A stretch of DNA of 63,958 nucleotides, filler included, from Folioceros fuciformis (taxonomy: Eukaryota): NCBI GenBank assembly GCA_049999805.1. It is 6 parts of 6 records of this genome, joined end to end, with 100 filler letters (N's around TTAATTAATTAA, not from the genome) between each part and the next. Parts side by side here need not be neighbours in the genome. Positions count along the whole stretch, not along the records: positions 1 to 17,183 come from JBNGIO010006396.1; 5 more parts are not named here. One strand, given 5' to 3'. The notes beneath the pieces were generated by a model. That model ran no database searches. It was not told the DNA's origin and saw only the letters and a list, made by a program, of their open reading frames with translations. Position 1 is the stretch's first letter. Every line of letters starts with the position of its first letter. The translations under genes and the position numbers were made by a program. Positions 3,001 to 29,419 of this stretch are shown here, piece after piece.

Positions 3001-4933
3001 ACCTTGGAAGAAGGCGTCACACCTCGTCACCAAATGAGTGGAACACTCCCCCCCTTTCATATAGATCCTTCCTCGTTCAGGACGATAGGGATCCACTTGA
3101 CATGGGTGAACCTCAAACTTATACTGAGGCTATGACTGGTCCAAAGGCAGAAAAGTGGAAGGCAGGCATCCAGTCAGAATACCAATCACTCATAGATAAC
3201 AAGACATGGGAACTTGTGGATTTACCTCAGGGCCGCAAGGCAGTAACGTGCAAGTGGGTATTTAAGAAAAAGATTAACCAAGATGGTGTTGTGGCAAGGT
3301 ACAAAGCAAGGCTGGTAGCACATGGCTACAGCCAAGTGGGAGGACTTGACTACAACGAGACCTTCTCTCCAGTAGTCAGAGCAACCTCAATTCATACCCT
3401 ATTAGCATTGGCACCTCAGTATGATTACAAAATGGAGCACATGGATGTTAAAACCGCCTTCCTAAACGGTAACCTGGAGGAAACAATTTTCATGTGTCGG
3501 CCAGAAGGGTTTGTGGATCTCAAAAAACCAAACAAGGTATGCAAACTGCTAAAAACTATCTATGGACTTAAGCAGTCACCTAGGGAATGGTACAAGAGGA
3601 TCGAGTCATACCTTAAGAAGTCTGGATTCGTCCAGAGCTCTGCTGACAACAACGTATACAAGCTGCATGAGAAGCATGGAGTTGTATACCTGGCACTAAA
3701 TGTTGACGATGCCGTAATCATTGCCAGCAGCCCAGCTTTAATGACCAAGGTTAAGGGTATACTCACATCTGAGTTCAGCATGTCCGACCTTGGGTAGTTA
3801 ACCTATTTCCTTGGAATTCAGATTGTACAGAACTTGGCATGCCACACAGTCTTCATACACAAGACAACCTTTATACAGCACATGCTAGCTAGGTTCCGGA
3901 TGCAAGACTGTAAGCCAGCTGCCACACCTATGCCAGTGGGAGACAAACTCTCCATAGATCAGTGCCCTAAGTCAAAAGAGGAAAGACAACTCATGGCCAC
4001 CATTCCCTACAGATCAACAGTATGCATATTAATATATTGTCGAAATTGGACAAGGCCAGAATTATCCCATTCAGTGGGAGCAGCAGCTCAATTCCTTACC
4101 AACTATGGGAATGCACATTGGGTGGCAGCCCATAGGATAATGCGTTATCTTAAAGGAACCCCAACACTTGGCCTCCTCTACAAGAAGAGACCTGAAAGAC
4201 TGCTGCTAACTTGTTTCTGTGATGTAGACTGGTCATCAGACAGTGATACCAGGAGATCAATCTCTGCTAACTGCCTATTGTTAGGGAAAAATGAGTATGA
4301 CTCAACCATCATCTCCTGGTACAGCAAAAAGCAACACGTTGTTGCTCTCTCCTCGACAAAAGTAGAATATGCTGCAACAGCAACAACATCGCAAGATATT
4401 GTCTATACTAGAGGTTTGCTGGAGTCACTACAGGAGCAGTAGACAGCACCCACACTTCTCCTTTGCGACAATCAATCTGCAATTGTGTTAGCTCGCAACC
4501 CTGTAATGCACTCCCGCACAAAACACATAGACATAAAACATCACTTCATTAGGCAGGTTATCTCAGACGGTCAGATAAGTTTACAGTACTGTCCAACAGC
4601 AGAGAATGTCGCTGACCTCCTGACCAAAGCACTGCCTAAAGACAAGCATGATAAGTTTAGTAGAGCCATAGGGCTCACAGAAAATCCTAGCACATAGCCT
4701 GCATGCACACAACAGTCAACATATTCTACTTGTTATCTAAACCCGCTGATCTCCATACTCCCTTGAACCATCAAGCTGACATGTTTGTAGTGCACTTGTA
4801 CCAGGACACTGCATGCATGCAGCTTCCATCTCATTGGGAGGAAGGTTCAGACAAGCTTCGGTGCAGGAGGGAGTGTACCTGAGATCATGGCAAGTTAAAG
4901 GAACAAGTGAAAATCACTGCTGGCTAAGTGGGA
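42..4933 (+). mobile_element. Degenerate Ty1/Copia LTR retrotransposon (gag-PR-IN-RT-RNaseH, multiple stops/frameshifts)
   Basis: Gag CCHC CNWCLIPGHYESEC; protease WFLDSSASSH; integrase VHSDLCGP and IRSDNGGEY; RT KARLVAHG, MDVKTAFLNG, YGLKQ, NVDD; RNaseH DVDWSSD and HSRTKHID, in Copia order. Purine tract AAGTGGGAG at ~4925. Confidence 0.96.
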
Positions 4934-5183
4934 GTAAAAGAATGCATTACTGTTTATTTTCTAAGTAGCCAGCAATGAGTTAATTAAATAAATATTAAAA
5001 CTGAACGGACATGTATGAAACGTCATACATGCCATAGATTCATACGGGCGCATAGAAACGACGTGCCCTAACTATTGAACCGTCGTCATGGTTAAGGGAC
5101 GTGCTNNNNNNNNNNCGTCACCGTCACTCACAAAAGGGAGTGCAATGACGCATAACTAATTCTACTCTCTCTCATGTTTTCCT

Positions 5184-7216
5184 TCATCCAATTCTACCTA
5201 GTACGTCTTGAAAATACCTGTATTTCTGTCGTTTGCTGCTCCAACTTGTTACTGTCCCACCAAGTAGGTAAAGGTAGGTACTTATGCTCTTTCTGTCGTC
5301 GACGTTGCTGGCCAAGTCGGCGTTGCTAAACCCCTCGAGTTGTAGGGGTTGATGTTGTTGGATTTGAGAGTGATAGAGAAGTCCCATATCTAAGGTAGCC
5401 CTTAGGTACCTAAAGATTCTCTTCACTACTTTCCAATGAGCTCGAGTGGGAGCTGATAAGTACTTAGACAAGGCTCCCATTGAGAATGAAATATCCATTC
5501 TAGTGCAAACCATTAGATACATTAGACTTCCGAGCGCTGAAGAGTAAGGCAGCTCATCGCTGCTGTAAGGATTATCTTCATGTTGTTGGTCCTCTTCTTC
5601 AGTAAGCTTCAGGTTGATCTCCATAGGTGTGGAGATGGGCTTGGAGTCTATCATCTTGTACTTAGTTAGAATCTCCTGTATGTACTTGGACTGATGGATA
5701 AATAGGCTTCTAGCCTTTTTATCTCTTATAACTTGAATCCCTAGACAAAATGAGAGTTCCTAATAGGTGGTCATAAAGAATCATTCTGCTAACATGAGTA
5801 TGGTGTCCTCTAGAAGTGCCTTGGAACTGGAGCATGGAGCTTATGACCTTGTTGACTGTGAGTGGGGATACGCCTTGCAGGGACTGTACTACAGATACCC
5901 ATGATTCGGGTAAGGTAGTCAAGAGGATCGTTGCTGAGAGGTCCTCGGTCATGGAGAAGCCAGTGGCTAAGAATTTTGCTGTCCAGCTGCGGAACATCAT
6001 CACATGGTGGTCAACTTGGTCTCCCTCGGCCATTCGAAGGTTGAAATAATTCTTCAATGTATGCACAGTATGCATAATATCGCTGGCTGCGTAGATTTCA
6101 TGTAGCTGCTTCCATGCTTGGGCTGTTGTTTCAGCTCCTTCAATTTGCTATATGTTGCTATGTTGCATTAACTGCATAATTACATTTTTGGTCTGTTGGT
6201 TCTTTTCATCCCATGCGTTTTTTTCGGCTGAAGGGCAGATGAGCCTAGGTGTGGAGTGACCACTGAAAAAGTGCCGACGCCCCCAACATAAGCCCATAGT
6301 TTTCTCTCCATCAAGATGTTGGTAATTCCATACTGCGAAGTTATGTTGTTGGCCGTCGAAACGGTCTTCCTTGGACAAGGAGATCGTGGAGGTAGACATG
6401 TTGGGAGCAATTTTATTTGTGGCTACAGGCGAATAGTTGTGTGCCTGAAGATGTGTTCTATTTCTAGTCTCATTGTGAAAGAGATTAAGTATGTTTTGGT
6501 TGTCGTTGTGCTTGGTTTTGCAGGGTTGTAATCAAGGGCTGTGAGTTTCTGAAGGATATCTTGCTGGATTGACTTGATTTCCTGTTCTAAAGGTCTGCTA
6601 ATTAGGTTGTGTTGTCTACATATACTTGATATGTGTGTTGCAATTTTGTCTTCTATGTGTGAGATGGAAAGATGGAAAGATGCGATGTGATTTGGAAGTG
6701 TGAATTGTAATCATTGATTGTCATGTCGTGAACAGGAAGGATACTTGGATGTATCCCCAATCGTATTCAAGTGGGTCAAGAAAACCACGCAATAGTAGCT
6801 ATTCTCCGGTTAGCAGGAGTAGGGAGCATACGCGGAACCAGGCGTAGTGTAGCAGGTTCTCATTGGCTTCTTTTAGAGATGTTTGCTCTCTTTGGATTCT
6901 GGTGATTTCTAATTGTGCTGCCAGTTTGTTGGTCCTTGCTTGTAGACGTTGGCGTCTCTATTGGCCTGGCATTGCTCATTAGGGAAGGCAGTTCGCTTGC
7001 TCTGATACCATGTAAATGGAGCAAGAGGCGAGAGCGATGGATATTCAGGCGGTGGATTTAGCATTAGATTGAAGCGTAGAAGGTTTGCACCTTTGTGCAG
7101 AGTCAAGCGTCACAAGCGAGATGCTGTGTGGTTTTAACCGTTCCACTTATACTGATTGGTATCCTGACCTAGGATGAACTGTGCCCTGGTAGGCCCAAGT
7201 ACTATTATTATTAATA
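5184..7216 (-). mobile_element. Internally deleted Ty1/Copia element (5' LTR, PBS, gag joined to the RT C-terminus/RNaseH start)
   Basis: Met-tRNA PBS at 6999-7010 on the minus strand. Gag (KEDRFDG, LRMAEGDQVDHH, LLTTLPESW) jumps at ~5720-5800 to LFIHQSKY...YSSALGSLMYL...EGFSNAD. PR, IN and most of RT are absent. Confidence 0.88.
6999..7010 (-). promoter_or_regulatory. Primer binding site (initiator tRNA-Met), TGGTATCAGAGC
   Basis: gctctgatacca on + strand, directly next to the LTR end (...TACA on minus) at 7011. Confidence 0.92.
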
Positions 7217-7991: not shown

Positions 7992-8358
7992 TGCAACGTT
8001 GTCATCCCATACATGGCATTAGTATTGAGCAATGGAAACCCTGTACCCCTATTGCCAATGTTGTCGTCCTGTACCTATATATGGCATTAGCTAACGCTCA
8101 CTATTAAGCAATGGAAACCCTCTACCTCTATTGCCAACGTTGTCGTCCTCTATATGGCATTACCCAACACTTGCTATCGAGCAATGAAAACCCGTTGTCG
8201 AAGAAGAAGACCAAGAACTCCCCTTGGCACAAGACTTTGAAAACATGGAAAATGCCTTGCACATCATGAGCATGTAGATCTGAATAAAATGCCTTGTGCA
8301 TCATGAGCACGTAGGTCTAAATAAACTACCTTGCGCACCATGAGTACTTAGGTCTAAA
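7992..8358. repeat. Three ~70-bp degenerate units followed by ~36-bp units (AAATGCCTTGCACATCATGAGCA.GTAG.TCTGAATA)
   Basis: caacgttgtcgtcc...tggcatta...gcaatggaaaccc occurs three times; the 36-bp unit occurs three times at 8250-8358. Confidence 0.8.
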
Positions 8359-10808
8359 TGTCACGATACCAAAGGTGAGCTTAAGGTTGAGTAAGCAGCG
8401 CGAAACAATTATCCTTTAAATAAGGATTAGTTTAGAATAATGCCATTTAAATATTGGCAATTAGGAAACGCTAAACGGTAATTAGTAAACACCCAAAACC
8501 AGAGAACGTGGATTAGGGCATGTTGGCAGCTGCCCTGCTGAAACCCGTGGGCTCACACCAAGAGTGTGAGCCCAACCAAATGAGCATGACTCAAAGAGGC
8601 AAGCCCGCACTAGAATCGATGACGTCAGCCATGGCCGCCACGCTAAACCCTGGAGATGGAGATGGAGGCCGCTACTCGTCGAGGTCACACCAAAGGAGAG
8701 TGCCTGTTGCTATCTTAGAAACTCAATTGCTTTTGTTGTTCCAGCCATATTTGGGCTCAAGAGTTGTAAGGATTGATGTTCTTCGTATCTCGCTGTAGCA
8801 TCTGGTGTGATTTACCCGACTCTAAGCTGCCTGGCATATGCAGCTCGTCAATCAAGTTCTTCCAACGAAAACGTCCAGAAACCTGCATGTGAGCAGATTC
8901 CATGTCACTTCGACGACTAGCTGCGAGATCTGAGTGCAACTAGGCTTAGAGGGGGTGGTGACGCACCTACAGCAAGGCGCCATCCTCCCCGTCTTGCCAG
9001 CCGCCAGCTGCAACGTTGACTTAACAAGTTTAGGGTTACCAACCTTCCATGGCTCATAGCGCCCCCAATATAGATTGGTTGCCATTGGTTCTTATACTAT
9101 TCGACTTGCCTTGTCAAGGCAAACAGTTTGGTATGCTTTGTGTGCGATTTGGAGCCCTATGTAGGGACTAATTGCATTTGAAAGTTTCGGACAACAGGGT
9201 TTTGCTCTTGTTGCATTTGTTTTGATTTTCGATCTGGCATTGCGAGTGAGCGAGGCCACGTGCTGCAATCTTCACATGTGAGCTGGAGTTTTGCTGTGGT
9301 GTGTTCCTAAATCCTAGGGCAGACATAGGGAATTGTGGGTGTTGCAGCATGATCAGATCTAGAGCAGTTGTGCTTTCTGTTTTGTGCTGGGAAGGCATCT
9401 AGGGTTCTCTAACAAGTGTGCTTGCATGCCACCTCTCGTTGAGAGTTGGTCGTTTGTGTGTGAGTTGTTGCATGGGTTATGCAACCCGAGGAGCCAGAAG
9501 GTAGCCCATGTTATCATCTGCAATCGAGGAACGTCCCTGCTAGGGTTACACCGGAGCGTGCACAAGCCAGGAGGAGGAGAGCTGCACGTCAACGATGTTT
9601 GTCTTGGGAGGAAGAGGTCCAAGAGGACCATCAAGCTGGGCCAAGTGCTGTAGACCAGCAGCAACCAGAGATCGAGAGTTGGTCTCCGTTTGTGGGCTGG
9701 ATAGCCACAGCTGCCCCCACAGCTCCTTTGGGAAGCCAAGGAGCTGGTTTCAATTGTCCTGTATTCACAACTGCGAGGTTAGGGTCTCAAGGTCGGGCAG
9801 ACCTCTTTGAGGATTCAAATACTGGATCCATGGAGGGAGGAGCACCTTACAAGCAGGAGAGATTCTCCGGGAGACCAGGGACACAGACTTTGCGGGATTT
9901 CAGACTGCAGCTCAATGATGTCTTCAGTCATGTAAAATTCAAGCATGCTAGAGCTTACAACCATTTGTATATGTTCGAGCAGCTTTCAAGTTATCTGACA
10001 AATGAAGCTCTGGACCTTTATGAGTTGCATCAGGCTGAGCTCACAGCCATGGTGTCCACGCCTAATCCAAGGTTCCAAGAGGCTCTTCAGCTGTCTTACA
10101 ACGCCAAGCTAGCTGCAGCCATTCAGGGTCATCAGCAGGCCTTTGTTGCAACCATGGTGGCACCAACAGTGCCACCCCCAACGATCGTAACTCTTACACC
10201 AGATGAAAGGATAGCAGCCACTATGGGCATACCCGATGAGCTGCAGGTTCCTAAGTATGCCAACCCTATCGAAGAATTCATGGGCATTTTGGAGAAAGCC
10301 TTCCCATAGAAGACTCCGGAGAAAATTGCAGAGCATGCATCTTTTGCTAGGAAGAAGGGAGAAACCGTGCAGATGGCGTTCCGTAGACTGCAGAAGCTAC
10401 GTGAAGGCGCAGGGATGCTAACGGACCAAGAGGCAGCGGAGAAATTCCTAACAGCCTTGGAAGGAGACCCACTCTTTCACTTTCAGCTCATCACAACGTT
10501 GGTGGATAAATATGGTGATAGGTATACCTTGGAGCAAGTACATGAAGAAGCTAAACGCAAGAAGATTGCTTTCTCTGCATATGCTTCACGACACTCCAAG
10601 GCATTTACTCATTACCAGTCTATGTTCTCCACAAAGGGGTCTATTGCAACAGGTTCATGGGCCAAGTCACAGCAGGCCAAGCCTATCAAGGCTAGAGCAG
10701 CTACAGCTATAGTTGCTTCTTTGTGCAACTACTGTGGCAGTTCTGAGCATATGAGCCCAGCCGACAAATGCCCATCGGAAGGCTTGTACTGCACACATTG
10801 TCACACAC

Positions 10809-11520
10809 ATCCAGGCCCTGGGATCCATAGATGTGCTAATAACTAGCTAGGAATGCCAAGGGTTCTCCCAAGCAGGCGCAGGAGCGGGGTTGGAGGACTG
10901 TTGCACTGGGTTGTTGCGAGACCTGCACCAGATCTTGGCATAGGTGCAATAGGAAAATCCACAGTGTGGCTATCTCCTCAAGAACACTCCAGCGCAGCTT
11001 GACAAGAGGGACTCCGTGCGACAGGACATGGCAGTCGTGGAGCACCATCTTGGTGCTCCCTTTCTTTTGGATGCTATCCAGGTGGGTAGTTATGCGCACC
11101 GTCTCGCAACTACTGGACCAACCTCATCCCTAATTTAGTCTTGGCACTCGTGCTTCGCAACACGAAGCGGGATCCCACCTTGCAGCTGCAGGATGTGTTG
11201 GATGCAGATCATGAACCCAGGATGTGGTTGCTAGTGGGCGACCACCCTGGCATCCAACCAACACACCTGGTCAGCCTCGCAAAACATTGCCTACCCTGGT
11301 GAGCTTTCCTGGCTCCTTTGCCTATCGCGGCAACGGCACTGGATTGCTATACAACACCACCACAAAGCAATGGGAAGAGCCCTCCATTGAGGAGCGTGAG
11401 CAGATCATGGGCTTTCCAGCACATGCCACAGCAACACCGCAGGTTACAGTCTCTCAGCGCTGTGCTGGTATCGGTTGAGCTATGTACTTGCACGCCATCA
11501 CTTGGCTTGTGAGTTTATGC
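10809..11520 (+). pseudogene. DNMT3/DRM-like C5-cytosine DNA methyltransferase domain (motifs IV-X) inside the Gypsy pol, disrupted
   Basis: Manual translation. Frame +3: IDVLITS*ECQGFSQAGAGAGLED (motif IV), GYLLKN (VI), LGAPFLLDAIQVGSYAHRL. After a frameshift: RNYWTNL (VIII)...LQLQDVLD. After a second frameshift: EREQIMGFPAHAT (IX), SQRCAGIG*AM (X). The last frame continues into RT. Confidence 0.88.
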
Positions 11521-14500
11521 TTGGCTTTCCAACTGCTTACCAGAGGCACCCTTGCAGGCCTTGTAGCCATGGCTTGTCCAGCAGATGCAGTGCACCTACC
11601 TTTCCCTGGCTATCCTTGCCTACCTTTTAGGCTCGATGCAAGGGGGGGGGAGTATGCTGCTTGGCACCACTCTGTTTTTTCTGCATCGACCTTTTAGGTG
11701 GATGTGAGGCAAGAGCCATCAACCAAGGTGCCACTCACTGCTGAAATGTTCAACTGGCACATTGGACCACAGCTCGCTGATGAACAACAGAGTCAGATTC
11801 AAGCATTGATTCTCAAGTACAGTGATTGCTTCGCATTCTCCATGAAGGAGTTGAAACGCTGCAATGTCACAACCTTCAGGATCAACCTCACAAGCCCGGA
11901 GCCCATATATCACAGAAGGTATCGGCTGAGTCAATCTAAGTGGGAGATGGTGGATGCCAGGTGCAAGAAATTATGTGAGGCAGGGCTAATCAGACCTTAC
12001 AGTTCTGATTACGCTGCTGCGACTGTCATGCCGCCCAAGAAGGATAGCCATAGCTTATGGACGAAGAAGAGAATGTGTGGCGATTATCGTCCTATCAACG
12101 CCGTGACAGCCCAGGACAGGTACCTTATGCCTACACCGAAGGAGATCTTTGACAACATCGGCAGATCTGTCTACTTCTCCGTATTGGATCTAAGGCAAGG
12201 GTTCAACCAAGTGCCAGTGGCACCGGAGGACATAAAAAGGATAGCCTTCACGGATCACAGCAACTGTGGGAGTGGCTCATGATGCCGTTCAGCTTCAAGA
12301 ATGCTCCATTCACCTTCCAGAGGGTTATGGACATAGATTTGGCCAGGTTAGCCAACCTATTGTGCTACATAGATGACATCCTTGTGCACAGTGTGGTCTT
12401 TGAGTCGCATTTGGAACACTTGGAGGACCTTTCCCAGCACCTAAGGAAGGCTCATCTCAAGTGCCATCCAGCCAAATGTGAATTTGGTATGGATACAGTT
12501 GCATATTTAGGGCACAGGGTGGTTCCCAACGGCGTGATGCCACACTCAAATAAAGTGCAGGCCATTCTGCAGGTCAAGGAGCCTACTAACATCTTTGCCT
12601 TGCGAGCATTCCTTGGCCTTTGCAGTTATTATCGGATATATATCCAGAACTTCAGCCGTATTGCCAAGCCTCTCAACGACCTGCTCAGGAAGGATGTGGT
12701 ATGGACTTGGAATGAGGCTATGTAGGAGGCGTTTGATACCCTGAAATCCAGGTTGACCTCTGCACTTGTGATGGCCAGACCTGATTTCAAGCAGCCATTT
12801 GTGCTACACACAGACTGGAGCAGCTTAGGCCTTAGGGCAATTTTGGCTCAGCATGATGAAGAAGGGAATGAGAGAGTGATAGCCTATGCATCCTGTAGCA
12901 ACAACAAGGCGGAGGCCAATTACAGCAATTATGAAGGTGAATGCCTCGTGGCTGTTTGGGCCGTTTGCCACTTCCAACCTTATCTCTATGGACAGGCATT
13001 CAGGCTGGTGACGGACCACCAACCCCTCAATTGGCTCATGGCCAACACAAAGCTCAGCGGCAAGCTAGCTCGATGGGCCATGATTCTTCAGGATTATGAT
13101 TTCCAAGTGGTTTACAAACCAGGTCTAAAGCATCAGAATGCAGACACTCTCTCCAGGAATCCAGACAGCAACTGTCAGGACATCACCGAGGCAAGGCAGG
13201 ATTATGAGCCTTATGAACCATTCAAGGTCGCTGCTCTGGTGGCTATGGTGTGTGTCGACAGTGGCAGCACAGCTATACCCACCCGACTGGCTAAGGACAT
13301 TTGGGAGGATCCTTACACACTGCAGTATCTGCAAACAGGATAGCTAGATGCGACGTTGCCACCAACCACAGCTAAACAGGTCAAGCATCGTGCTGTCACA
13401 TATTACTGGCCGGATGGTTATGTTATTAGGAAGCTGGCACATGGCGTTGCACGCTTGGTGCCGCCACCAGTTGACAAAGCTGCACTAATTAGTAAGGTGC
13501 ACAATGATATGGGTCATTTTGGCGTCAAACGCACTTACAGCCTGCTAGCCCCTCATTTTTGTTGGCAATGGGATGCATGGTCATGTGCGTGACTGGGTTG
13601 CCTGCTGCGAGCCATGCGACAGGGCGAAGACTTCCTTCACCATCCGGCACCCGGAGCTACATCCTTTGCCTATCATGGGCCTCTTTTTCAAATGGTCATG
13701 TGACCTGATTGGGGAGCTGCCATGCATTGCACGTGGGAATGTGTACATGCTTGTCATGATGGAGCATTTCTCCAAGTGGGTGGAGGCTGTCGCGCTGCTT
13801 GACAAGATGTCCAGGAGCACCTCTCAAGCATTCTTGCAGGATGTACTCAGCCATTTCGGCAGCTGTGCAGAATGTTTAACTGACCAGGGGTCAGAATTCA
13901 GGGGTGAATTCCAAGATCTATAAGACGCAGCATTGATAGATCATCGCAGGACAAGCAGAGACCATCCCCAAGCTGATGGTCTTATAGAGCGAATGGTCCA
14001 GACACTCAAGAAGGGCTTGAGGAAGCTCTGTCTACAGATGCCTAAGCTTGAGTGGGATCTCGCCTTGCCCTACATCACAATGAGATACCGAATGAGTAAG
14101 CATGCCTCTTTGGCACACTTCTCACCGTATTTCCTACTTTTTGGCCGTGAGCCAATGCCAACTAGCTCCATCGCCAAGCAACTGTAGTAGGTGGTGGACT
14201 TAGATAGTCCAGTTGTATGGGCCAAAGTCATTGGGGAGAGGGCTACGATGTTTAGGCAGGTCATGCCCATGGCTATGGCACATTTGCACATCGCACAGCA
14301 CAAGGACACTCTTAGGTATGCCTATACCAGGAGCAGAAGTTTCAGGCCCAAACTCAAGAAGTTCCAATTTGGGGACTTTGTGTATTTGCAGCAACAGACT
14401 GGTGATACACTAGACTCCAGCACTAGCTGCCATGTGCTGTGGATCAGGGAAGATAGACATAATGGCGTGCTGCTACTACAGGGGCAAATGGCAGGACTAT

Positions 14501-14594
14501 TACAGATCACACCAAGAATTGTGCCCCCTGCCACCTACCCAACTTGGACCCCACCATTGTCACAGCCAATTGGGTCCCCCCGGAGGATTACCCT

Positions 14595-14729
14595 TGCCAG
14601 GTGTGTTGCAGGGTAGATGATGCAGAGCTCATACTGCTCTGTGATGGATGCAATGGCGGATTCCGTTTGTTTTGCTTGGATTCGCCGCTGACTGAGGTAC
14701 TTGAACAGTTATGGTATTGCCCCCAGTGT
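14595..14729 (+). other. PHD zinc finger at the C-terminus of the Gypsy integrase (degenerate copy)
   Basis: CQVCCRVDDAELILLCDGCNGGFRLFCLDSPLTEVLEQLWYCPQC has C4-H-C3 PHD spacing with the His replaced by Arg. Confidence 0.9.
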
Positions 14730-15049
14730 GCTGTTCCTACAGTTAGTTGAGGGCATGGGTACCCGGCGTGGATAAGCCCTTTCTTTTTGCTAGCTATTCT
14801 CGTCAGCTTGGGGGGGGGGGGGAGATGGGGGTTCCCCCGGGCTTCTTGTCGTGCAAGGCACACTGCAGACGGTCAAGCTGGTGATAAGTGTGGCAACCTC
14901 CAGCCGCGAGCATCAGCTGAATAACACAACACATACCAAAGAAAGTGGTAAGAAGGTTAGCATCACGCAAGGTGTTGAGCACTGGGAAAATGTGGAACCC
15001 CCATCTCGACATGGAATCTGCTCACACGCAGGTTTCTGGACGTTGGGGG

Positions 15050-15285
15050 TTACTCAACACTTGCTATCGAGCAATGGAAGCCCGTTGTCGAAGAAGAAGA
15101 CCAAGAACTCCCCTTGGCACAAGACTTTGAAAACTTGGAAAATGCCTTGCACATCATGCGCATGTAGATCTAAATAAAATGCCTTGTGCATCATGAGCAC
15201 GTAGGTCTGAATAAACTACCTTGCACACCATGAGTATGTAGGTCTGAATAAAATGCCTTGCACATCATGAGTACGTAGGTCTGAA
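15050..15285 (+). repeat. Second copy of the 8160-8358 repeat, including 36-bp tandem units
   Basis: Near-identical ttac.caacacttgctatcgagcaat...gaagaagaagaccaagaactccccttggcacaagactttg... followed by 36-bp units. Confidence 0.9.
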
Positions 15286-16515
15286 CGGCAAAGGGGATAA
15301 AGGTGTGTCCAACTTGTAGAAGGATGTACTTGTCAACAAAGTGAGTCCCACCCAAACCCAAAACCCAAAACCCTAAACCCTAAACCCTAAACAAGTGTGT
15401 ACTAAAGAGGCATAATGCTTTGGTAAAGATTGGAACAAAGGAGACTCAAAACACATATATATGTAATTGTGGAGATGTCAATCCTTCTAATCTACATATA
15501 TTTAATTTAATTAAAATATAAATTAATTCATCTTTAATCTATAATATATCAAGATCAACAAGTAGGGCAAATTTTGAGATTATGAATCCTACCCACAAAG
15601 CTTTCAAGGAGAAGATACTTAGCTAGAAAAACTAAGGACATTCCAAGTAACTAGAAAAATTAGCTTTAACATTGACACTAGAAATCATGACATAAACCAT
15701 GGGGGGGTTAGTATATAATGACATAGTGTGTGGTCTTCGTTCAATAGCCTAATACATTCACACATCACCCATGGCTTTGAAGGCTATCTGTTACAACTAA
15801 TGAAGGCTAAGGCTCGGCAAATAATTTTTGGTTATCTCCCTAGACCCTAAATCAAACCCTTAACCCAATAGGAAATCTTAGGGTTTAGGGTTTTTATATC
15901 TCTTATTCTCACAAACCTCAAATAGATAATACACTGAATTTGTTAAAGCTGGTTATTCCATGCAAGATATAGGAAAAGTTCTAACAAAATGTACAATTTT
16001 TGGTTTTCTAGAGCTCTCCCACTTGCATCGTACACTTGAAACTCCACTCCGCAGTCGGATGACCTTTTGGGATGGGAAGGACGAGCATGATTTCTTGGAG
16101 ATGGAGTTTGGAGCGTCCACAGCTATCGGGCTGTTTGTTTCCTCTGTCACATTGGTCTGTCGTGGCTTTCATGAGAAATACAGGAGCCAGTGGCCAGCTG
16201 GTGTGGCCAGCTTCCAGCCTTGTCGGTCGGTTCACCATGCAGACTACGCTCGACCGCGCACGTGCCCATTTTCACGACCCGAAACTCCTAAAGATAGCAA
16301 CGGTAACAGCTCGATCCTTGACCTGCCAAGCAGCAAGGAAATGAATCAGGCCGCCGCGAGGCCACCGATTTGTCGACAGTCCCGTTCTTGGAGCAGATCG
16401 GAGCGTCGCGGAGTGTGCTCTTTGCGCAATTCTGCTGTTTCGCACGGATTCTGGGGAGGAATTCGACTTCAGCCTGTCAGCGAGGGGGTCAGGAATCGAG
16501 AGGCGGATCGGGGAG

Positions 16516-17114
16516 ATGGTGAGGTTGTTGTGGAGGCTCGGGAAGGCGAGGGTGGGAGCATTCGAGCACGCAGGTGCAGGAGGCGGAGGCGGGAAGTGTG
16601 AGGAATCGGATGCTCACGCGCACGGTCTAGGTGAGGCCGGCTTGGTGTGGAATGGCTGGAATCCGTTCTTGCTTTTCTATGAGGGGATGGAGGAGGAGAA
16701 GGTTGTGGCGATCCGGGATTTGCTGACTGCGGCTGGAGATGGCACGTTCGGGGAGGAGAACATCATCGGATGGGGCAGGTTCAGCACGGTTTACAAGGCG
16801 CTTCTGGCGGATGGAACCGCGGTTGCTTTGAAACGGCTGAATCTTGGATCGTGGACGCTGTCGAGAGTGGGATTTTTGAAGCGGCTGCGGATCTTGATGA
16901 GCGTGGAGCATCCGAATCTGGTTCGGATCTTAGGTTGCGATGGGAGGAGGAAGGTGATGGTGTTGGATTACATGCCTAACTCTTGCCTTGCGAAGATACT
17001 GTGTTCGGGAGATTCGGCGGTGAAGAAGGCACGGGTGCTGGCGTGGGACAGGCGGCATAAGATTGCGCTCGGCGTGGCCTTAGGGCTGCAACATCTGCAC
17101 TGCGCGTACTCCCC
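16516..17114 (+). CDS. RLK/Pelle-family protein kinase, N-terminal part (truncated by gap/scaffold end)
   Basis: FGEENIIGWGRFSTVYKA, VALKRL, EHPNLVRILG, VLDYMPN and WDRRHKIALGVALGLQHLH correspond to subdomains I-VIa. The start codon is uncertain. Confidence 0.8.
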
Positions 17115-17183
17115 NNNNNNNNNNAGAAGGCGTTGTCTCCAAGTGAGCGGGGAAAATCCTTCTCTTTTCCCCTGGAGATGTTC

Positions 17184-17283
17184 NNNNNNNNNNNNNNNNN
17201 NNNNNNNNNNNNNNNNNNNNNNNNNNNTTAATTAATTAANNNNNNNNNNNNNNNNNNNNNNNNNNNNNNNNNNNNNNNNNNNN
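17184..17283. other. Artificial scaffold linker N44-TTAATTAATTAA-N44 (also 23909-24008, 30033-30132, 34750-34849, 61393-61492)
   Basis: Identical 100-nt spacer containing an all-frame stop cassette, present five times. Confidence 0.97.
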
Positions 17284-17311
17284 TGGTCTTGATGAGGTAC
17301 TCCTCCCTGAT

Positions 17312-20300
17312 GTGGCTTACCTGCAAGACTCCAACGAAATCTGGACACAACTACTGCAAACGTACGAGGCAAAGAACATACTTACGCAGTGTGCAATTCG
17401 TGGAGAACTGTTTTCAATGAGACTTAAAGAAGGCGAGAAGGTGGGACCTTTCGTCGTGAAGTTTCGGCAGTTGCGGGCCCAGCTCCTGAACTTAGGATCC
17501 CAGTTTCCTGAGTTGGATGCTGTTGCCCAACTCCTCACCTGCTTACCACCCAGCTACCAGACCTTCGTCTCCGGCTTTGGAGCTTCCATTCGCGCGGCAG
17601 ACAAGGCTGTAGCTGCTGGCAAGGCACCTCAAATCAGTCTTGTTGACGTGATTGGTGCTCTCCTGCAAGAGGAACAAAGCAGGCTTCATTCCACACCACA
17701 GGGTGGAAAAACGAAAACAGATAAGGTTCTTTATACTAAAGGGAACAAATTGCAGAAAGGACAGAAAGGTCGATCAGCTACTGGTGACTCACCTTCTGGT
17801 CCTTCCTCAAGCAAGCGGCCTGGATCATGCAACTGGTGTGGCATCCAGGGCCATTGGGAGAGAGACTGTAGAAAGAAGAAAGCCGGCGAAGCACGCAAGG
17901 TCGAGAAGCCCAAGCAGGCTGAGGCTCACGCTGTCGCTAAGCCTTCCTCAACTTCAAACAAACCTCCAGTCGTTATGACAGTTTGTTTTTCGTCTTCTGC
18001 AGGTCCTCCCTCCCCCCATAGTTGGTACTTAGACTCTGGAGCCACATCCCACATCTGTAATGACAGAGGTTTACTTAGTAACTACAGACCTTCCCGCACA
18101 TCAGATAAAGTCCTGTTGGGTGATGAACTTACCCGTACTGGTCTGCATATTGCTGGGTCTGGTACATGTCGTTTTCGGTTGCACGATGGGTCCATCCTCC
18201 ATCTTGACAACGTCCTGCATGTACCCCTCATGGCCAAGCACCTACTTTCAGTCAGTCAATTATTGTCTTCCAGAGAGTACGACCTCCTCTTCACTTCTCA
18301 CAGCTGTGCACTTAAGAAGCGAGGGGGGGATGGACAGGTCGTAGCTAAAGGACATCTCTTTCATGACTTGTACCAGCTTGATCTCACATGCATCCCTCCT
18401 GAGTCTGTGCATGCTACTCACTTATCACAGGCTGCCCAAGCCAGCTTATGGCATGCCAGATTAGGTCATGCTAATAGAGACAAGCTGTTAAAGATGTCTA
18501 ATTTGAACTGCTATAGAGAGCCCTTGCCGAAATGCTTTAAAGACTTACCTCTTTGTGATGCCTGCGTCATAGCCAAGCAAAAGGAACTTCCTTTTCCTAA
18601 ATCAGTGGCTCATCGAGCATCACAAGTATTAGAGTTAGTACATGCAGACATTTCAGGCAAGATTCATGTTCCCTCTCTAGGCGGTGCCCTATACTATCTT
18701 ACCATCACTGATGACTTTAGTCGCTACTCCTGGACTTACCCTATCCGGTTGAAGTCCGATACCTTTGAGGTATTTAAGGAATGGTTGGTGATGGCGGAGA
18801 GACAGACAGGGTGTTTGCTACAACAGCTGCGTACAGACAACGGGGGCGAATTTACTCATTCCCACTTCAACCAGTTTCTGCTGGACAGAGGTGTTGTACG
18901 GCAGCTAATCGTCCCTTATACTCAGCAGCACAACGGTGTTGCTGAACGTCGCAACCAGACCCTGCTGGGCATGACACGCAGCGTGTTAGAATGGGCAGGT
19001 TTAAGCAAAGCATACTGGGCTGAGGCAGTGGTCACAGCGACTTATCTGCTAAACAGGCTTCTCACAAGTGCTGTGGACGGAAAGACTCCATTTGAGGTGA
19101 TATGGCGTCGGAAGCCTAGTCTCCTGCATCTAAGGGTATTCGGCTCCCCAGCGTATGCTTACATCCCTGAAGAACGGCGGCTGAAGTTAGAAGACCGAGC
19201 ACGCCCACTTGTCTTCGTGGGATATGGAGAAGAAGCCAAAGCTTATAAGTTAATTGATCCACTTACCTTGACAGCAGTTTTTGCCAGAAGTGTGACTTTC
19301 AAGGAGCTTGTATGTCCCGCAAAGCCCTACTTCGATCACCTGTCCGACAACAGTGAAAGAGTTACTCATGTAGACTTGACAGACATGGAAGATTCATCTG
19401 AATTCCCACAAGATGACTTACCAGGCGTTGTGTTCATTGAGGCTCCTGAAGCTGTGCACAACCCTGGAGAGGGTCTCGCACATCCACAGGACGATGAGGC
19501 TGCACCAGATATTCAGGCTCCTGATCCAGCAGCTCATGGAGCACTCCCTGCCGACTTGACTCATGAAGATCAGTTTCCTGATGCAAATGATTTTCGGGAA
19601 CAGCCTGCAGCAGAGGACGAGGCTGCACATGACTTAGCTGCGGAAGATGTTTCTGTTCAATCTACAGATTCTGACTTACATGAGGATTTACCTGGTTCTG
19701 TTTCAGATGATGATGATCTAGCTGAAGTCCAGCCTGAAGCTATCCAGCCTGAAGAGCGTCGTTATCCTCAGCGTACCAGGAATCCACCTGTCCAGTGGAC
19801 AGAACCTCCATATGCTTCCATTGATTTTCGTCGCCCTCGAGCTGGAGTAGCCCTGCCAACACCCCAGTCTTCTGTCAGCAGTATCAAGCCTGAACCTCGA
19901 TCCTACCGCGAAGCTATTACCGGAGCTGACAAGGCCCATTGGATTCCCTCGATCAAGGACGAATACGACTCCTTAATCAAAAACAATACATGGGAATTAT
20001 GCTCCTTACCTAAAGGCCGGAAAGTTGTCAGCTGCAAGTGGGTCTTCAAGCACAAGTTGAATGCCCAGGGTGAGATTGCTCGCTACAAATCGAGGCTCGT
20101 GGCCAGGGGTTTCACCCAGATTCCAGGGATTGATTTTACAGAGACCTTCAGTCCCGTTGTGAAGACCCAGTCTATCCGTATGATTCTTGCTCTCGCTGCA
20201 GCAAACGCTTGGGACCTCCAGCAGATGGATGTCTGCACAACATTTTTATACGGTGAGCTGGAAGAGGACATATACATGTCCCAGCCTGAGGGTTTTATAG

Positions 20301-21472
20301 ACCCTGAGCACCCGGATTGGGTCTGCCATCTGAAGAAGACTATCTACGGGTTAAAGCAATCGGCACGAGAATGGTACAAAACAATTGACAAGTACCTTCG
20401 ATCCATCGGCTTCATTCAAAACCCTGGTGATGCAAACGTGTATTTTTACAGCAAGGCTGGTACCCTCGTGATTCTTGCCTTGTACGTCGACGATGCCATC
20501 CTCGCATCAAACGACCAAGGCTTGTTATCATGGGTTAAAGACATGCTTCGCCAGAAATTTGATATGAAAGATATTGGGGCACTTACCTTCGTTCTTGGTG
20601 TCCAACTTGTTCGTGACTTTGATGCTGGTTCCCTTATGCTTCATCAAGCGAAATACATCTCTGAGACTCTGCACCGTTTTCATCTGGACACTGCCAAACC
20701 TGTGTCCACTCCTGGTGTTGCAGGCCTGAAGTTGTCTCATGATCAGTGTCCACAGACAGATGAGGAGCGCCAGGCCATGGCTCAGGTTCCTTATCGCCAT
20801 GCTGTGGGCTGTCTCAACTACCTCAGTTGCTGGACAAGGCCAGACATTCAGTTTGCTGTGAGCTCTGTCTCCCAGTTTCTCGATAATCCTGGCCCTGCAC
20901 ACTGGAGTGCAGTTAAACGGGTCCTCAGATACCTAAAAGGTACTCAGCAATATGGCCTCTGCTTCAGGGGGCGAGGGCAAGCACCTACCTTGTGTGGGTA
21001 CGCTGATGCCGACTGGGCCACCGACCCAGATGCCAGAAGAAGCATCTCGGCATATTGCTTCACTTTGAATTCCACAGCTGTTCACTGGAGCTCGAAGAAG
21101 CAATCCTCAGTGGCCTTGTCCTCCACCGAAGCTGAATACAAAGCGCTGACGGAGAGCGCCAAAGAGGCTGTATGGGAACGCAGTTTTCTGTCAGGCCTTG
21201 GGTATCCACAGTCACAGCCTACTCCTATTTACTGTGACAACATGTCCACCATCGCGCTGACTGCCAACCCTCGTTTTCATGCGCGTACAAAGCACATTGA
21301 AGTGCATCATCATTTTATCCGACATTCTGTGGAACAGCGCCATGTGAGAATCCAGCATGTGTCGACAGACCTAAACACTGCCGACATTTTGACGAAGTAC
21401 CTTCCTGCTAGCAAGCACTATCAACACATGGAGGCTATGGGCGTACAGGCCTGCCCTGACTCCCAGACCTAA
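17312..21472 (+). CDS. Copia element A gag-pol polyprotein (uninterrupted; its N-terminus is at 23078 because the scaffold is permuted)
   Basis: 1386-aa ORF with CNWCGIQGHWERDC, WYLDSGAT, HADISG, RTDNGGEF, KSRLVARG, YVDD, YADADW and HARTKHIE. Confidence 0.97.
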   Translation: MAYLQDSNEIWTQLLQTYEAKNILTQCAIRGELFSMRLKEGEKVGPFVVKFRQLRAQLLNLGSQFPELDAVAQLLTCLPPSYQTFVSGFGASIRAADKAVAAGKAPQISLVDVIGALLQEEQSRLHSTPQGGKTKTDKVLYTKGNKLQKGQKGRSATGDSPSGPSSSKRPGSCNWCGIQGHWERDCRKKKAGEARKVEKPKQAEAHAVAKPSSTSNKPPVVMTVCFSSSAGPPSPHSWYLDSGATSHICNDRGLLSNYRPSRTSDKVLLGDELTRTGLHIAGSGTCRFRLHDGSILHLDNVLHVPLMAKHLLSVSQLLSSREYDLLFTSHSCALKKRGGDGQVVAKGHLFHDLYQLDLTCIPPESVHATHLSQAAQASLWHARLGHANRDKLLKMSNLNCYREPLPKCFKDLPLCDACVIAKQKELPFPKSVAHRASQVLELVHADISGKIHVPSLGGALYYLTITDDFSRYSWTYPIRLKSDTFEVFKEWLVMAERQTGCLLQQLRTDNGGEFTHSHFNQFLLDRGVVRQLIVPYTQQHNGVAERRNQTLLGMTRSVLEWAGLSKAYWAEAVVTATYLLNRLLTSAVDGKTPFEVIWRRKPSLLHLRVFGSPAYAYIPEERRLKLEDRARPLVFVGYGEEAKAYKLIDPLTLTAVFARSVTFKELVCPAKPYFDHLSDNSERVTHVDLTDMEDSSEFPQDDLPGVVFIEAPEAVHNPGEGLAHPQDDEAAPDIQAPDPAAHGALPADLTHEDQFPDANDFREQPAAEDEAAHDLAAEDVSVQSTDSDLHEDLPGSVSDDDDLAEVQPEAIQPEERRYPQRTRNPPVQWTEPPYASIDFRRPRAGVALPTPQSSVSSIKPEPRSYREAITGADKAHWIPSIKDEYDSLIKNNTWELCSLPKGRKVVSCKWVFKHKLNAQGEIARYKSRLVARGFTQIPGIDFTETFSPVVKTQSIRMILALAAANAWDLQQMDVCTTFLYGELEEDIYMSQPEGFIDPEHPDWVCHLKKTIYGLKQSAREWYKTIDKYLRSIGFIQNPGDANVYFYSKAGTLVILALYVDDAILASNDQGLLSWVKDMLRQKFDMKDIGALTFVLGVQLVRDFDAGSLMLHQAKYISETLHRFHLDTAKPVSTPGVAGLKLSHDQCPQTDEERQAMAQVPYRHAVGCLNYLSCWTRPDIQFAVSSVSQFLDNPGPAHWSAVKRVLRYLKGTQQYGLCFRGRGQAPTLCGYADADWATDPDARRSISAYCFTLNSTAVHWSSKKQSSVALSSTEAEYKALTESAKEAVWERSFLSGLGYPQSQPTPIYCDNMSTIALTANPRFHARTKHIEVHHHFIRHSVEQRHVRIQHVSTDLNTADILTKYLPASKHYQHMEAMGVQACPDSQT

Positions 21473-22759: not shown

Positions 22760-23077
22760 GGCGCGCCTGGGGTGCTTCGTGTCCGCTGTGTTTTCTGGCG
22801 GGAGGCGTCTTCTTTGGCATCTGCCCGCAGTAAGACTCCACAGGACGCGACCCTGCAAGCGGCCATGCTGAAAATACCACGTCAGCCATCTACTTACCTC
22901 AACCGTCAACAGACGTCTCAGGAGATGTTCTGTGCCATCTGACCTCTCCGCGAACCTCTTCTCTGCTCCACCTCTCCGCCTCCTGTAGCATTGCGAGACA
23001 TATTACGAGAAAAATTGCCTGGTGCTCTCGGCCTGATCACCCTTGCGCGCTTGATAATTTTTCTGCAATACGTCTGC

Positions 23078-23908
23078 ATGGCTACAGGAGGGGTTAGTGG
23101 AGGTGGAGGTAGCGCAGGAGGTACAGGAGGCGCAGGAGGAGGAGTGGTCGCATTACCTCTTCCACCTGTGCCTGTTATCCCCGCTCCGTCTTTCTCAATG
23201 GAATTTAAGGAGAAAGACCGCTTTAATGGCACGAAGTTTCATGGATGGCGTGTTCGCATGACAGCTGCCCTGCAGGCACGGCACGTGTGGGGCATTGTTA
23301 GTGGTTCTATTCCTAAACCAGCATCTACTGCTCCAGCAGATGAACTTGAGAAGTGGGATAACCTGAATCATGTAGCTCGTGCGGTCTTGATTAGTGGTCT
23401 TGATGAGGTACTCCTCCCTGATGTGGCTTACCTGCAAGACTCCAACGAAATCTGGACACAACTACTGCAAACGTACGAGGCAAAGAACATACTTACGCAG
23501 TGTGCAATTCGTGGAGAACTGTTTTCAATGAGACTTAAAGAAGGCGAGAAGGTGGGACCTTTCGTCGTGAAGTTTCGGCAGTTGCGGGCCCAGCTCCTGA
23601 ACTTAGGATCCCAGTTTCCTGAGTTGGATGCTGTTGCCCAACTCCTCACCTGCTTACCACCCAGCTACCAGACCTTCGTCTCCGGCTTTGGAGCTTCCAT
23701 TCGCGCGGCAGACAAGGCTGTAGCTGCTGGCAAGGCACCTCAAATCAGTCTTGTTGACGTGATTGGTGCTCTCCTGCAAGAGGAACAAAGCAGGCTTCAT
23801 TCCACACCACAGGGTGGAAAAACGAAAACAGATAAGGTTCTTTATACTAAAGGGAACAAATTGCAGAAAGGACAGAAAGGTCGATCAGCTACTGGTGACT
23901 CACCTTCT
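23078..23908 (+). CDS. Copia A gag N-terminal part (Gly-rich start), truncated by the scaffold end
   Basis: MATGGVSGGGG...MEFKEKDRFNGTKFHGW. 23395-23908 is identical to 17284-17797. Confidence 0.93.
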
Positions 23909-24043
23909 NNNNNNNNNNNNNNNNNNNNNNNNNNNNNNNNNNNNNNNNNNNNTTAATTAATTAANNNNNNNNNNNNNNNNNNNNNNNNNNNNNNNNNNNN
24001 NNNNNNNNGCCGAGCTAACCAGCGTGCTCCGTTTACGGGGGCG

Positions 24044-25028: not shown

Positions 25029-25369
25029 GAGGGTGCGTTTGCAGCTTGCACGTTCCCGGCGCCTCCTGGCGGCTGGCGCCTCGTACAGTGGGTACCCCTT
25101 CCCACAGCAGGTGTCTATGGGACGCGACCCTGCACACGGCCACCCCCACGTCAGCTGTTCACAGCGCTCAACCGTCAACTGACTTGGAGCATGGTGTCCT
25201 ATGACATCTGACCTTCTGCTCACACCGCAACGAAACCTTCTGCTGCTCCTCTTCCGCGCTTCATCTCCCTGTCTTTTCCTGAACATTTCGACCTACTTCG
25301 AGAAGAGTACCTTGTGTAATCGGCCTGATCACCCGGGAACACTTGATAATCTCATCAAAGTAAGTCAGA

Positions 25370-28300: not shown

Positions 28301-29409
28301 CCCAAGACATATCAGGAGGCTATCACCGGACTTGACAAGGAGCATTGGATTCCCTCCATCAAGGATGAGTATGCTTCCCTGATTAAAAATGCCACATGGG
28401 AACTGTGTCCCTTGCCTACAGGTAGGAAGACCGTGAGCTGTAAATGGGTCTTCAAATATAAGCTGAATGCCCAGGGCGAGATTGCCAGATACAAGTCTCG
28501 CCTAGTTGCCCGGGGTTTTACCCAAGTCCCAGGACTAGATTTCACTGAAACTTTTAGCCCTGTTGTGAAAACGCAGTCCATCCGTTTGATCCTTGCTCTT
28601 ACTGCTGCCAATGCATGGGATCTTCAGCAGATGGACGTGTGCACTGCTTTCTTATACGGTGAGCTAGAAGAAGACATCTACATGTCGCAGCCAGAAGGTT
28701 TTGTTGACCCCCAACATCCGAATTGGGTTTGCCACCTCAAGAAGACCATATATGGCTTAAAGCAGTCAGCCCGAGAGTGGTATAAGACTATCGACAAGTA
28801 CCTTCAATCTATTGGCTTTCTTCAGAATCCTGGTGATGCAAACGTCTACATCTACTCCAAGGGTGGTAAACTCGTCATTCTTGCTTTGTATGTTGACGAT
28901 GCCATCCTCGCATCAAACGATCCGGGCTTATTATCATGGGTCAAAGATATGCTGCACCAAAAGTTTGATATGAAGGATATAGGGGCACTCACCTTTGTCC
29001 TTGGCGTTCAACTTGCGCGTAACTTGGATGAAGGCACTCTTATGCTCCACCAAGCCAAGTATATTGCAGAGACTCTGCACCGTTTTCATTTGGATACTGC
29101 AAAGCCCGTCTCCACTCCAGGGGTTGCAGGCATGAAGCTCTCACTCGACCAGTGCCCACAGACTGATGAGGAACGCCAGGCTATGGCTCAGATTCCGTAC
29201 CGCCATGCCGTGGGCTGCCTGAACTACATCAGTTGTTGGACTCGGCCTGATATTCAATATGCAGTTAGTTCCGTCTCTCAGTTCCTGGACAATCCTGGAC
29301 AAGCTCACTGGAGTGCAGTTAAACGCGTGCTTCGTTATCTGAAAGGCACCCTTACACACGGCTTATGCTTCAGGGGGCGAGATAAAGAGCCTACCTTGTG
29401 TGGGTATGC
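25370..29409 (+). CDS. Copia element B gag-pol polyprotein (open until the assembly gap at the RNaseH start)
   Basis: Same domain motifs as Copia A and clearly homologous; poly-Gly N-terminus. Confidence 0.96.
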
Positions 29410-29419
29410 NNNNNNNNNN

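Follow-up and report, generated by a model that had tools for sequence, protein, structure and literature searches.

How mobile DNA handles host silencing can be seen in retrotransposons equipped with chromatin readers or with enzymes that modify DNA. PHD fingers are in print for the transposons CR1, REM1, the Chlamys elements and Gypsy-7a_cRei, as far as the accessible portions of the literature go. REM1 of Chlamydomonas (Perez-Alegre et al. 2005, as cited in other papers) is reportedly PHD-bearing. For Gypsy-7a_cRei, an active PHD-bearing element of Chlamydomonas, 86 new insertions were intergenic 2.6x over chance (Craig et al. 2022, PMC9940879), and a role of the transposon PHD in insertion-site choice has already been proposed (PMC9940879; Craig et al. 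2021, PMC8557442). In chromoviruses, the reader targets integration (Gao et al. 2008, cited in PMC6673714, bioRxiv 10.1101/2021.11.30.470311). DNA methyltransferases have also been described in retrotransposons: KnitGypsy-Dnmt3 of Klebsormidium nitens is a Gypsy long terminal repeat (LTR) element with a DNMT3-related enzyme inside its Pol open reading frame (ORF) (de Mendoza et al. 2018, PMC5890265), and the EpiLTRs and DAM-LTRs of chlorophytes and Euglena carry a histone reader together with DNA methyltransferases in Pol (bioRxiv 10.64898/2026.05.21.726589). PHD-bearing and DNMT-bearing Gypsy elements are each already in print. Here, we analysed a 63,958-nucleotide stretch of DNA from Folioceros fuciformis (the window; six joined parts of assembly GCA_049999805.1, filler included), in which a decayed Ty3/Gypsy element at about 8.16-15.25 kb carries a PHD finger at 14595..14729 (+). 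We propose, with a probability of roughly 0.7, that this finger is the C-terminal Pol domain of a green-lineage Gypsy clade whose members usually also carry a DNMT3-like enzyme, and that in active members it would tether integrase to histone H3.

The PHD finger is encoded by the stop-to-stop ORF 14463-14750 (+), whose translation ends with DYPCQVCCRVDDAELILLCDGCNGGFRLFCLDSPLTEVLEQLWYCPQCAVPTVS followed by the stop; position 14595 is the start of the first Cys codon of the finger and 14729 the end of its final Cys codon. The peptide follows the pattern C-x2-C-x11-C-x2-C-x4-R-x2-C-x14-C-x2-C. This has C4HC3 spacing, but codon 14664-14666 gives Arg at the His ligand position, which leaves seven zinc ligands out of eight. 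In the PF00628 search for which the sequence-only reading had called, the ORF scored 33.8 bits against a gathering cut-off of 24 (E 3.5e-8, profile positions 1-47 of 47), the fingers of its relatives score 32-43 bits in Pfam, and the family was still matched with 27.2 bits in a read-through of the entire 7.2-kb frame. A phmmer search of all PDB chains returned 60 PHD chains at E <= 0.01, of which the best were Drosophila Lid/KDM5 PHD1 (E 2.9e-12) and KDM5D PHD1 (E 1.4e-11). Moreover, tblastn with the relative P0006 over the PHD-bearing frame gave 69% identity over 84 residues (E 2.8e-34), and the opposite strand over the finger carries no Pfam family at E <= 0.1. These results confirm that 14595-14729 encodes a genuine PHD finger, well beyond chance; the full set of eight C4HC3 ligands is kept by the family and broken in the window copy. 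The finger is the last domain of Pol, about 36 codons past the integrase C-terminal region, and the Pol stop codon (14748..14750, +) lies six codons past its final Cys. It stands where the sequence-only reading had placed it, at the C-terminal end of Pol, in the place that the chromodomain takes in chromoviruses.

We then asked how the finger is joined to integrase in related elements. The ORF of the PHD finger retrieved the proteins P0004 and P0003. P0004 is a single ORF of 475 amino acids that holds the integrase zinc domain, the core and the PHD, and P0006, the closest relative, is a single ORF of 929 amino acids that runs through integrase into the PHD, keeps all ligands and ends 5 residues past the finger. 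When longer proteins were searched with P0004, 456 matches were obtained at E <= 1e-10, and PF00628 came after integrase in 120/120 among the matches listed. All eight zinc ligands are kept in 115/122 fetched proteins, and the PHD starts a median of 22 residues past the integrase C-terminal 'CAPC' motif. An exhaustive HMMER search with P0003 against 50%-identity representatives gave 5346 matches at E <= 0.001, and at the stricter thresholds of 1e-10 and 1e-30 there were 872 and 230, respectively; the integrase C-terminus and the PHD were matched as one continuous stretch in 148 of the best 150 representatives, the exceptions being P0302, which stops early, and P0329, which has fingers only. 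In intact relatives, then, the PHD is in frame with integrase, the opposite of the outcome by which the sequence-only reading would have been refuted. The window copy itself is not in frame; in it, alignment to relatives places a frame change between integrase and the PHD-bearing frame at 14479..14487 (+). The frame of 14191 agrees with the relatives through ...LLLQG, and the frame of 14463 agrees from ANGRTITDH... on; aligning the residues on either side of the change to P0006 and P0004 requires no gap. Taken together, these results make it almost certain that a real PHD finger is fused to integrase in this Gypsy family. Integrase is regularly extended by a PHD finger in a large green-lineage Gypsy clade. 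An integrase that ends in a PHD is thus no oddity of a single locus but what members of this family, with its at least 230 clusters at 50% identity, normally have. The named relatives are chlorophytes, namely Haematococcus, Pleodorina, Volvox, Chlamydomonas eustigma and Monoraphidium, with partial matches in Closterium. Among Atlas look-alikes, PHD-only clusters labelled Chlorophyta and Streptophyta had scores of 0.97 and 0.95, which is a lead only.

Other copies in the same organism were seen as contigs of the DNA runs X1, X2 and X3 (one sample) at >= 80% identity. The integrase-PHD stretch was covered by 155, 182 and 82 contigs in X1, X2 and X3, respectively, indicating that the family is multi-copy in the source organism. 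At position 14665, all other covering contigs (3, 8 and 3 in the three runs) carry the His-making letter, in agreement with the earlier supposition that His is the normal residue where the window copy has Arg. At 13567, most of the depth contributed by other copies lacks one letter; the extra letter in the window is the frame change found there. One contig per run reads ...QGSDGRITTD... into the HxxxCAPC segment, and thus crosses the integrase-PHD junction in one frame (with a loose end before 14508). At the frame change 14479-14487, no insertion or deletion is listed in the other contigs, few of which cover this bin. In a further run, X4 (guessed to be RNA), record 25 is a 9251-nt contig with three short integrase-PHD pieces at low identity, which could be either transcript or DNA from a related family that bears the same species label.

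A DNA methyltransferase had been claimed for the same element, and the remains of a DNMT3-like C5 cytosine methyltransferase, beginning at motif IV and spread over three frames, were identified at 10803..11600 (+) by tblastn with P0008. This protein is the best full-length relative, a single ORF of 2358 amino acids with the order gag-PR-DNMT-RT-RH-IN-PHD (with PR for protease, RT for reverse transcriptase, RH for RNase H and IN for integrase). The remnant showed 41% identity to amino acids 1026-1134 of P0008 (E 2.7e-19), and homology went on through amino acids 1135-1300. In P0008 itself, PF00145 was matched at amino acids 953-1137 with 32.5 bits against a cut-off of 22. The nearest solved proteins to this domain are DNMT3C, DNMT3A and DNMT3B (E 6.5e-9 to 2e-8), compared with 1e-5 for M.HhaI and 7e-4 for DRM. 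A Pfam scan of the whole read-through frames of the window returned no methyltransferase at E <= 0.01. The element thus has a DNMT3-type C5 methyltransferase inside Pol, and the domain in the window is incomplete and interrupted by stops.

PF00145 was flagged by Pfam in just 19/120 listed homologues. A search with the P0008 methyltransferase domain gave 105 matches, after which the P0008 domains were compared by blastp with all 213 fetched proteins; these were selected by similarity and many are truncated, and the proportions among them are not population estimates. By this comparison, the DNMT-like domain is much commoner than the 19/120 of Pfam. The order RT-DNMT-IN-PHD was found in 98/213 proteins, RT-IN-PHD in 32/213, DNMT-IN-PHD in 19/213, IN-PHD in 15/213, DNMT-RT-IN in 6/213 and DNMT-RT-IN-PHD, which is the order of the window element, in 5/213; a further 18/213 had the DNMT only, and 20/213 fell into smaller classes or had none of the three domains. 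A DNMT-like domain is present in 52/85 homologues with both RT and integrase, a set that was chosen by integrase and PHD alone; most full-length members thus appear to have a DNMT3-like enzyme in the same polyprotein, and the suggested co-occurrence of PHD and DNMT across the family is borne out by a set drawn regardless of the DNMT. Most of the 32 RT-IN-PHD proteins start at RT; they may represent the second ORF in elements that encode gag-PR-DNMT in their first. The longest contig listed is 8955 nt for P0014 and P0132 alike, which is a hint of such a two-ORF layout and no proof of it. The DNMT has two positions in Pol, before RT (the window type) and between RNase H and integrase (the 98 proteins above). 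The two placements are homologous, with 44% identity over 324 residues between P0008 and P0061, indicating that the DNMT domain moved within one clade. A sub-lineage (P0144, P0145 and P0152) has the DNMT without the PHD, and P0090, P0097, P0114 and P0123 have the PHD without a DNMT-like domain in at least 270 amino acids upstream of RT.

Beyond the PHD, P0061, P0040 and 54 other proteins have more than 200 residues, and many of them run on for 300-425 residues. In the tail of P0061, weak matches below threshold hint at a Tudor-like domain (E 0.14) and, at E 0.052, a D12-class adenine methyltransferase (PF02086); the same tail holds the motif pair DPF..G.G and SPPF. If a tail of this type is real, those elements would have a reader and two DNA methyltransferases.

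The company of a DNMT3-like enzyme raises an alternative to integrase tethering, namely that the PHD serves the methyltransferase of the element as a stand-in for the ADD domain, directing or releasing methylation at chromatin with unmethylated H3K4, so that new or resident copies become methylated. The ADD domain of DNMT3 reads unmethylated H3K4, and the enzyme of the family is closest to DNMT3. One ORF encodes both a DNMT-like domain and the PHD in 122/213 proteins (98 RT-DNMT-IN-PHD, 19 DNMT-IN-PHD and 5 DNMT-RT-IN-PHD), the same association is seen in the 52/85 set, and in the commoner architecture the enzyme comes directly before integrase-PHD, so that an unprocessed DNMT-IN-PHD protein is conceivable. 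Retrotransposon DNMTs, moreover, methylate CG de novo (de Mendoza et al. 2018, PMC5890265; accessible text). However, the PHD is fixed at its median of 22 residues past the integrase C-terminus wherever the DNMT sits, and in the architecture of the window (P0008) RT, RNase H and integrase lie between DNMT and PHD. Each domain also occurs without the other, the PHD in P0090, P0097, P0114 and P0123 and the DNMT in P0144, P0145 and P0152. We therefore consider service to the methyltransferase an unlikely explanation of the finger, and note that roles with the methyltransferase and with integrase are mutually compatible.

To integrase tethering, the question of what the finger could bind is central. 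The nearest solved sequences are PHD1 of Lid, KDM5D, KDM5A and KDM5B, followed by BAZ2B/BAZ2A, CHD4, WSTF, ORC1b, UHRF1, ATXR5, PHF21A and AIRE, and BHC80 and the second fingers of MOZ/DPF3 are also near by sequence or fold. An AlphaFold model of P0003 (mean pLDDT 85) has a long helix, a five-stranded SH3-like barrel, a linker of lower confidence and a confident PHD, in which the mean pLDDT of 10-residue blocks is 83-95, falling to 64 in the terminal block 181-190. The modelled PHD superposes on UHRF1, ATXR5, BAZ2A/B and BHC80 at a root-mean-square deviation (rmsd) of about 1.0-1.6 A, with TM 0.64-0.79 on the target, and several of these entries were solved with unmodified H3. The model of this relative thus predicts a PHD fold. 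Family fingers were then aligned on KDM5A PHD1, with residue roles taken from the accessible part of bioRxiv 10.1101/715474. The Asp for H3R2 and the Trp of the H3A1 pocket are each kept in 160/170 family fingers, and the Pro and Gly that hold the amino terminus of H3 through their backbone are found in 140/170 and 131/170, respectively. The fingers keep a hydrophobic first strand, and 138/170 have an acidic residue close to the K4 and acidic-patch positions. The residue two before His is Gly in 157/169, the position at which H3K4me3 readers have an aromatic cage residue. PHD1 of KDM5B and of KDM5A binds unmethylated H3K4 (PMC4225485, PMC6327041; accessible text).

On this evidence, the PHD of active members would bind the N-terminal tail of H3, most likely with K4 unmethylated, and the H3-bound finger would anchor the integrase complex on nucleosomes that lie away from promoters with methylated H3K4. 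Such steering of integration can be likened to that by the chromodomain of chromoviruses, which directs their integration (cited in PMC6673714; accessible text). By analogy with chromodomains, we give somewhat better than even odds to the step that the finger targets integration through the H3 tail. Unmethylated K4 as the mark that is read, to which sequence and model both point, is a more tentative assignment that we hold at rather less than even odds.

The same structural data bear on the possibility that the PHD has a partner other than the H3 tail, such as a host protein, a different mark or nucleic acid, or that it acts in particle assembly or nuclear entry. Ligands vary across the PHD class, the K4-pocket positions vary within the family, and the top ranks of a Foldseek search with the P0003 model are Tudor-PHD cassettes (UHRF1 TTD-PHD, PHF1 and MTF2; E 7e-7 to 3e-5), which read combined marks. 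Those matches, however, have an rmsd of 12-19 A, and the modelled integrase barrel and PHD mimic Tudor-PHD in domain content, not in arrangement, so that they appear to be two separate domain resemblances. Conservation is highest at the residues that in KDM5A PHD1 contact A1, R2 and the amino terminus of H3 (131 to 160 of 170 fingers), and the close solved relatives are all H3-tail binders. A partner other than the H3 tail thus seems improbable, and tethering of integrase to H3 is the reading that we prefer.

Several points weigh against this preferred reading. The function proposed for the family is read from sequence and a model, and the protein counts come from the similarity-selected set described above. 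The positions that contact K4 vary in the family, the equivalent of E305 being Glu/Asp in just 90/170. UHRF1 reads R2 and ATXR5 reads H3.1; some of the nearest solved fingers thus read other features, which makes unmethylated K4 just the most likely mark. The intergenic bias of Gypsy-7a_cRei may reflect selection, according to the accessible text of its authors (PMC9940879), and that element, set beside the window family by description, may or may not share its clade. The window copy itself could not work. Tracked along P0008, its coding sequence shifts frame 6 times and is broken by 11 in-frame stops, and an internal deletion has removed about 1.9 kb. Its methyltransferase remnant scored 19.0 bits for PF00145 (E 0.001), below the cut-off of 22, and its identity is a matter of homology to P0008. 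Its PHD has Leu and Gln at the positions that hold the H3 amino terminus, where the relatives have Pro and Gly, and Arg at the His ligand makes for a non-working finger. The Leu, Gln and Arg replacements fit decay. With 6 frame changes, 11 stops and the deletion, the window copy is a fossil; it is dead, without function and unable to perform the proposed roles, which concern active members.

The architecture of the fossil is nevertheless readable. On the plus strand, Pfam and tblastn gave gag, RT, RNase H, H2C2 and rve in this order, which is the Pol order of Ty3/Gypsy elements, and the whole copy reads gag-(protease lost)-DNMT remnant-RT-RNase H-integrase-PHD. A gag remnant lies at 9863..10822 (+; tblastn with P0008 amino acids 62-401, 24.5% identity, E 5e-16, 1 in-frame stop). 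With tblastn, nothing in the window corresponds to amino acids 402-1025 of P0008, the part that holds the protease and motifs I-III of the methyltransferase, and at the deletion junction (~10803-10822) the gag zinc-knuckle region abuts methyltransferase motif IV. Reverse transcriptase (PF00078) lies at 12034..12521 (+) with a frame change near 12250; it scored 25.1 bits in ORF 11698-12282, under the 29.6 cut-off, and 64.3 bits in ORF 12153-12725. It is followed by RNase H at 12726..13097 (+; PF17917, 121.1 bits, E 2.7e-35) and by the integrase H2C2 zinc domain and catalytic core at 13464..14030 (+; PF17921, 30.2 bits; PF00665, 46.6 bits), with the integrase frame change at about 13565-13570. 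The integrase C-terminal region, a helix and an SH3-like barrel, is at 14191..14484 (+; tblastn with P0006, P0004 and P0008, 55-62% identity). Downstream of the Pol stop, a purine run read directly at 14810..14831 (+) is polypurine-tract-like, a role suggested by its position. As to an LTR pair, the element is flanked by just 200-nt direct repeats of 94.5% identity at 8160..8359 and 15050..15249 (both +), which are partial and LTR-like, the 5' one with ~75-nt tandem units. Sequence 5' of the repeat at 8160-8359 has no match to the 3' side, which leaves the true 5' end undefined, and a search by self-BLAST and by eye yielded no defined LTR ends, primer-binding site or target-site duplication. 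A 37-nt inverted match (97%) joins 8870-8906, in the 5' untranslated part, with 15008-15044, just before the 3' repeat. The window holds a single copy of the element by tblastn. That the PHD is foreign to the element, whether a fragment of a host PHD gene that happens to follow a decayed integrase or a fortuitous Cys-rich ORF, would suit the frame difference and the missing His ligand of the window copy, but it has next to no probability and is ruled out by the single-ORF junction in 148 of the best 150 representatives and 120/120 listed homologues, by the same-organism copy that crosses the junction in frame and by the gapless alignment of both sides of the frame change to P0006 and P0004, as well as being opposed by the Pol stop, purine run and 3' repeat that come right after the PHD.

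The window also holds other transposons. At least five Ty1/Copia elements or fragments are present, at 678-4439, 17240-21472, 22943-23953, 25364-29446, 46307-49285 and 58337-59803 on the plus strand and at 30481-34797 and 60543-61436 on the minus strand; three of them have long open polyprotein ORFs (1410, 1361 and 1439 amino acids), and several are bracketed by paired 44-nt N blocks (masked stretches). Runs of the plant-type telomere repeat (CCCTAAA/TTTAGGG) are found at 15355-15392 and 15878-15894, interstitial and just downstream of the 3' repeat. The ORF 16345-17235 (+) lies immediately ahead of a Copia insertion; of a protein kinase domain (PF07714, 44.9 bits) it encodes the N-terminal half, and it may be a gene fragment. 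An intronless and uninterrupted gene at 35141-38116 (-) encodes a PLS-type PPR-E-DYW protein of 992 amino acids (PF14432, 113 bits), which resembles a factor for RNA editing in organelles, and nearby, at 40013-40723 (-), there is a second PPR fragment. DYW-type PPR proteins are characteristic of land plants.

For specialists, points of possible interest are the pairing of a reader with a writer, the two DNMT positions and the occurrence of the family in a genome with a land-plant-type PPR-DYW gene. The sequence-only reading had gone on to a self-contained epigenetic module that combines targeting with self-methylation, and such cooperation between finger and methyltransferase is a hypothesis. 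A bolder proposal is that these elements form a widespread and undescribed green-lineage Gypsy clade, from chlorophyte algae to a land-plant-like genome, with a toolkit of its own in which a DNMT3-like writer is joined to an integrase PHD reader, the PHD replacing the ADD/PWWP targeting logic of host DNMT3 and directing integration as well as self-methylation towards chromatin in which H3K4 is unmethylated. If so, new copies would arrive pre-silenced and tolerated, and some branches might add a Tudor-like and Dam-like tail. We regard this bolder proposal as distinctly unlikely.

Compared with described systems, the window element differs from Selgy of lycophytes, which the sequence-only reading had tentatively described as PHD-tailed. 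That description is not supported: in the supplementary table of Neumann et al. 2019, Selgy has a length of 5044 bp (4432-6724), GAG and PROT-RT-RH-INT and '-' as its extra domain, and a PHD goes unmentioned in the text of that paper as well. Membership of the window element in Selgy is rejected, as it spans ~7.1 kb even after the ~1.9 kb deletion and has two extra domains. The fingers of host chromatin proteins, namely KDM5 PHD1, BAZ2A/B, AIRE and BHC80, are the closest solved sequences and folds; they and the family fingers have in common the Asp that serves H3R2, the A1-pocket Trp and, ahead of the first strand, an acidic stretch, and their identity to the transposon finger is ~40-48% over 45 residues.

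Among transposons, Gypsy-7a_cRei resembles the window element as a green-lineage Gypsy Gag-Pol with an accessory PHD finger. It differs in that its legend, in the accessible text, lists GAG, PROT, RT, RH, PHD and INT and no methyltransferase, and the place of its PHD relative to integrase may differ as well. KnitGypsy-Dnmt3 is alike in being a Ty3/Gypsy element of the green lineage with a DNMT in Pol, and the methyltransferase relatives of the window element are likewise closest to DNMT3. A PHD is unmentioned in the main text and 3 supplementary files of that paper, of which Figure 4c may draw one, and the two elements, compared by description, may or may not belong to one clade. No K. nitens protein is named among the homologue matches listed, and the 'A-coding-B-A-B' repeat layout of KnitGypsy-Dnmt3 was not found in the window. 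The window has an intronless PPR-E-DYW gene, suggesting a host that is land-plant-like and not Klebsormidium. EpiLTRs and DAM-LTRs combine a chromodomain with a Dam-type adenine methyltransferase and a DNMT4-like enzyme, whereas the window family combines a PHD with a DNMT3-like enzyme; the accessible text of that preprint (bioRxiv 10.64898/2026.05.21.726589) does not mention a PHD finger. A Gypsy polyprotein with both a PHD and a DNMT3-like enzyme was not found described in the literature searched, outside of which lie subscription papers, Repbase and the Craig 2021 thesis.

Chromoviruses such as MAGGY and Tf1 are alike in that their Pol ends with a histone reader joined to the integrase C-terminus. 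No chromodomain family was found in any Pfam scan of the window or of its relatives, so the element is not classed with the chromoviruses, whose reader is a chromodomain and not a zinc-binding PHD. The mark also appears to differ, H3K9 methylation in chromoviruses compared with, probably, the H3 N-terminus with unmethylated K4 here, and chromoviruses are without a methyltransferase. In this company, the family is a noteworthy variant of the known reader-bearing and DNMT-bearing Gypsy elements.

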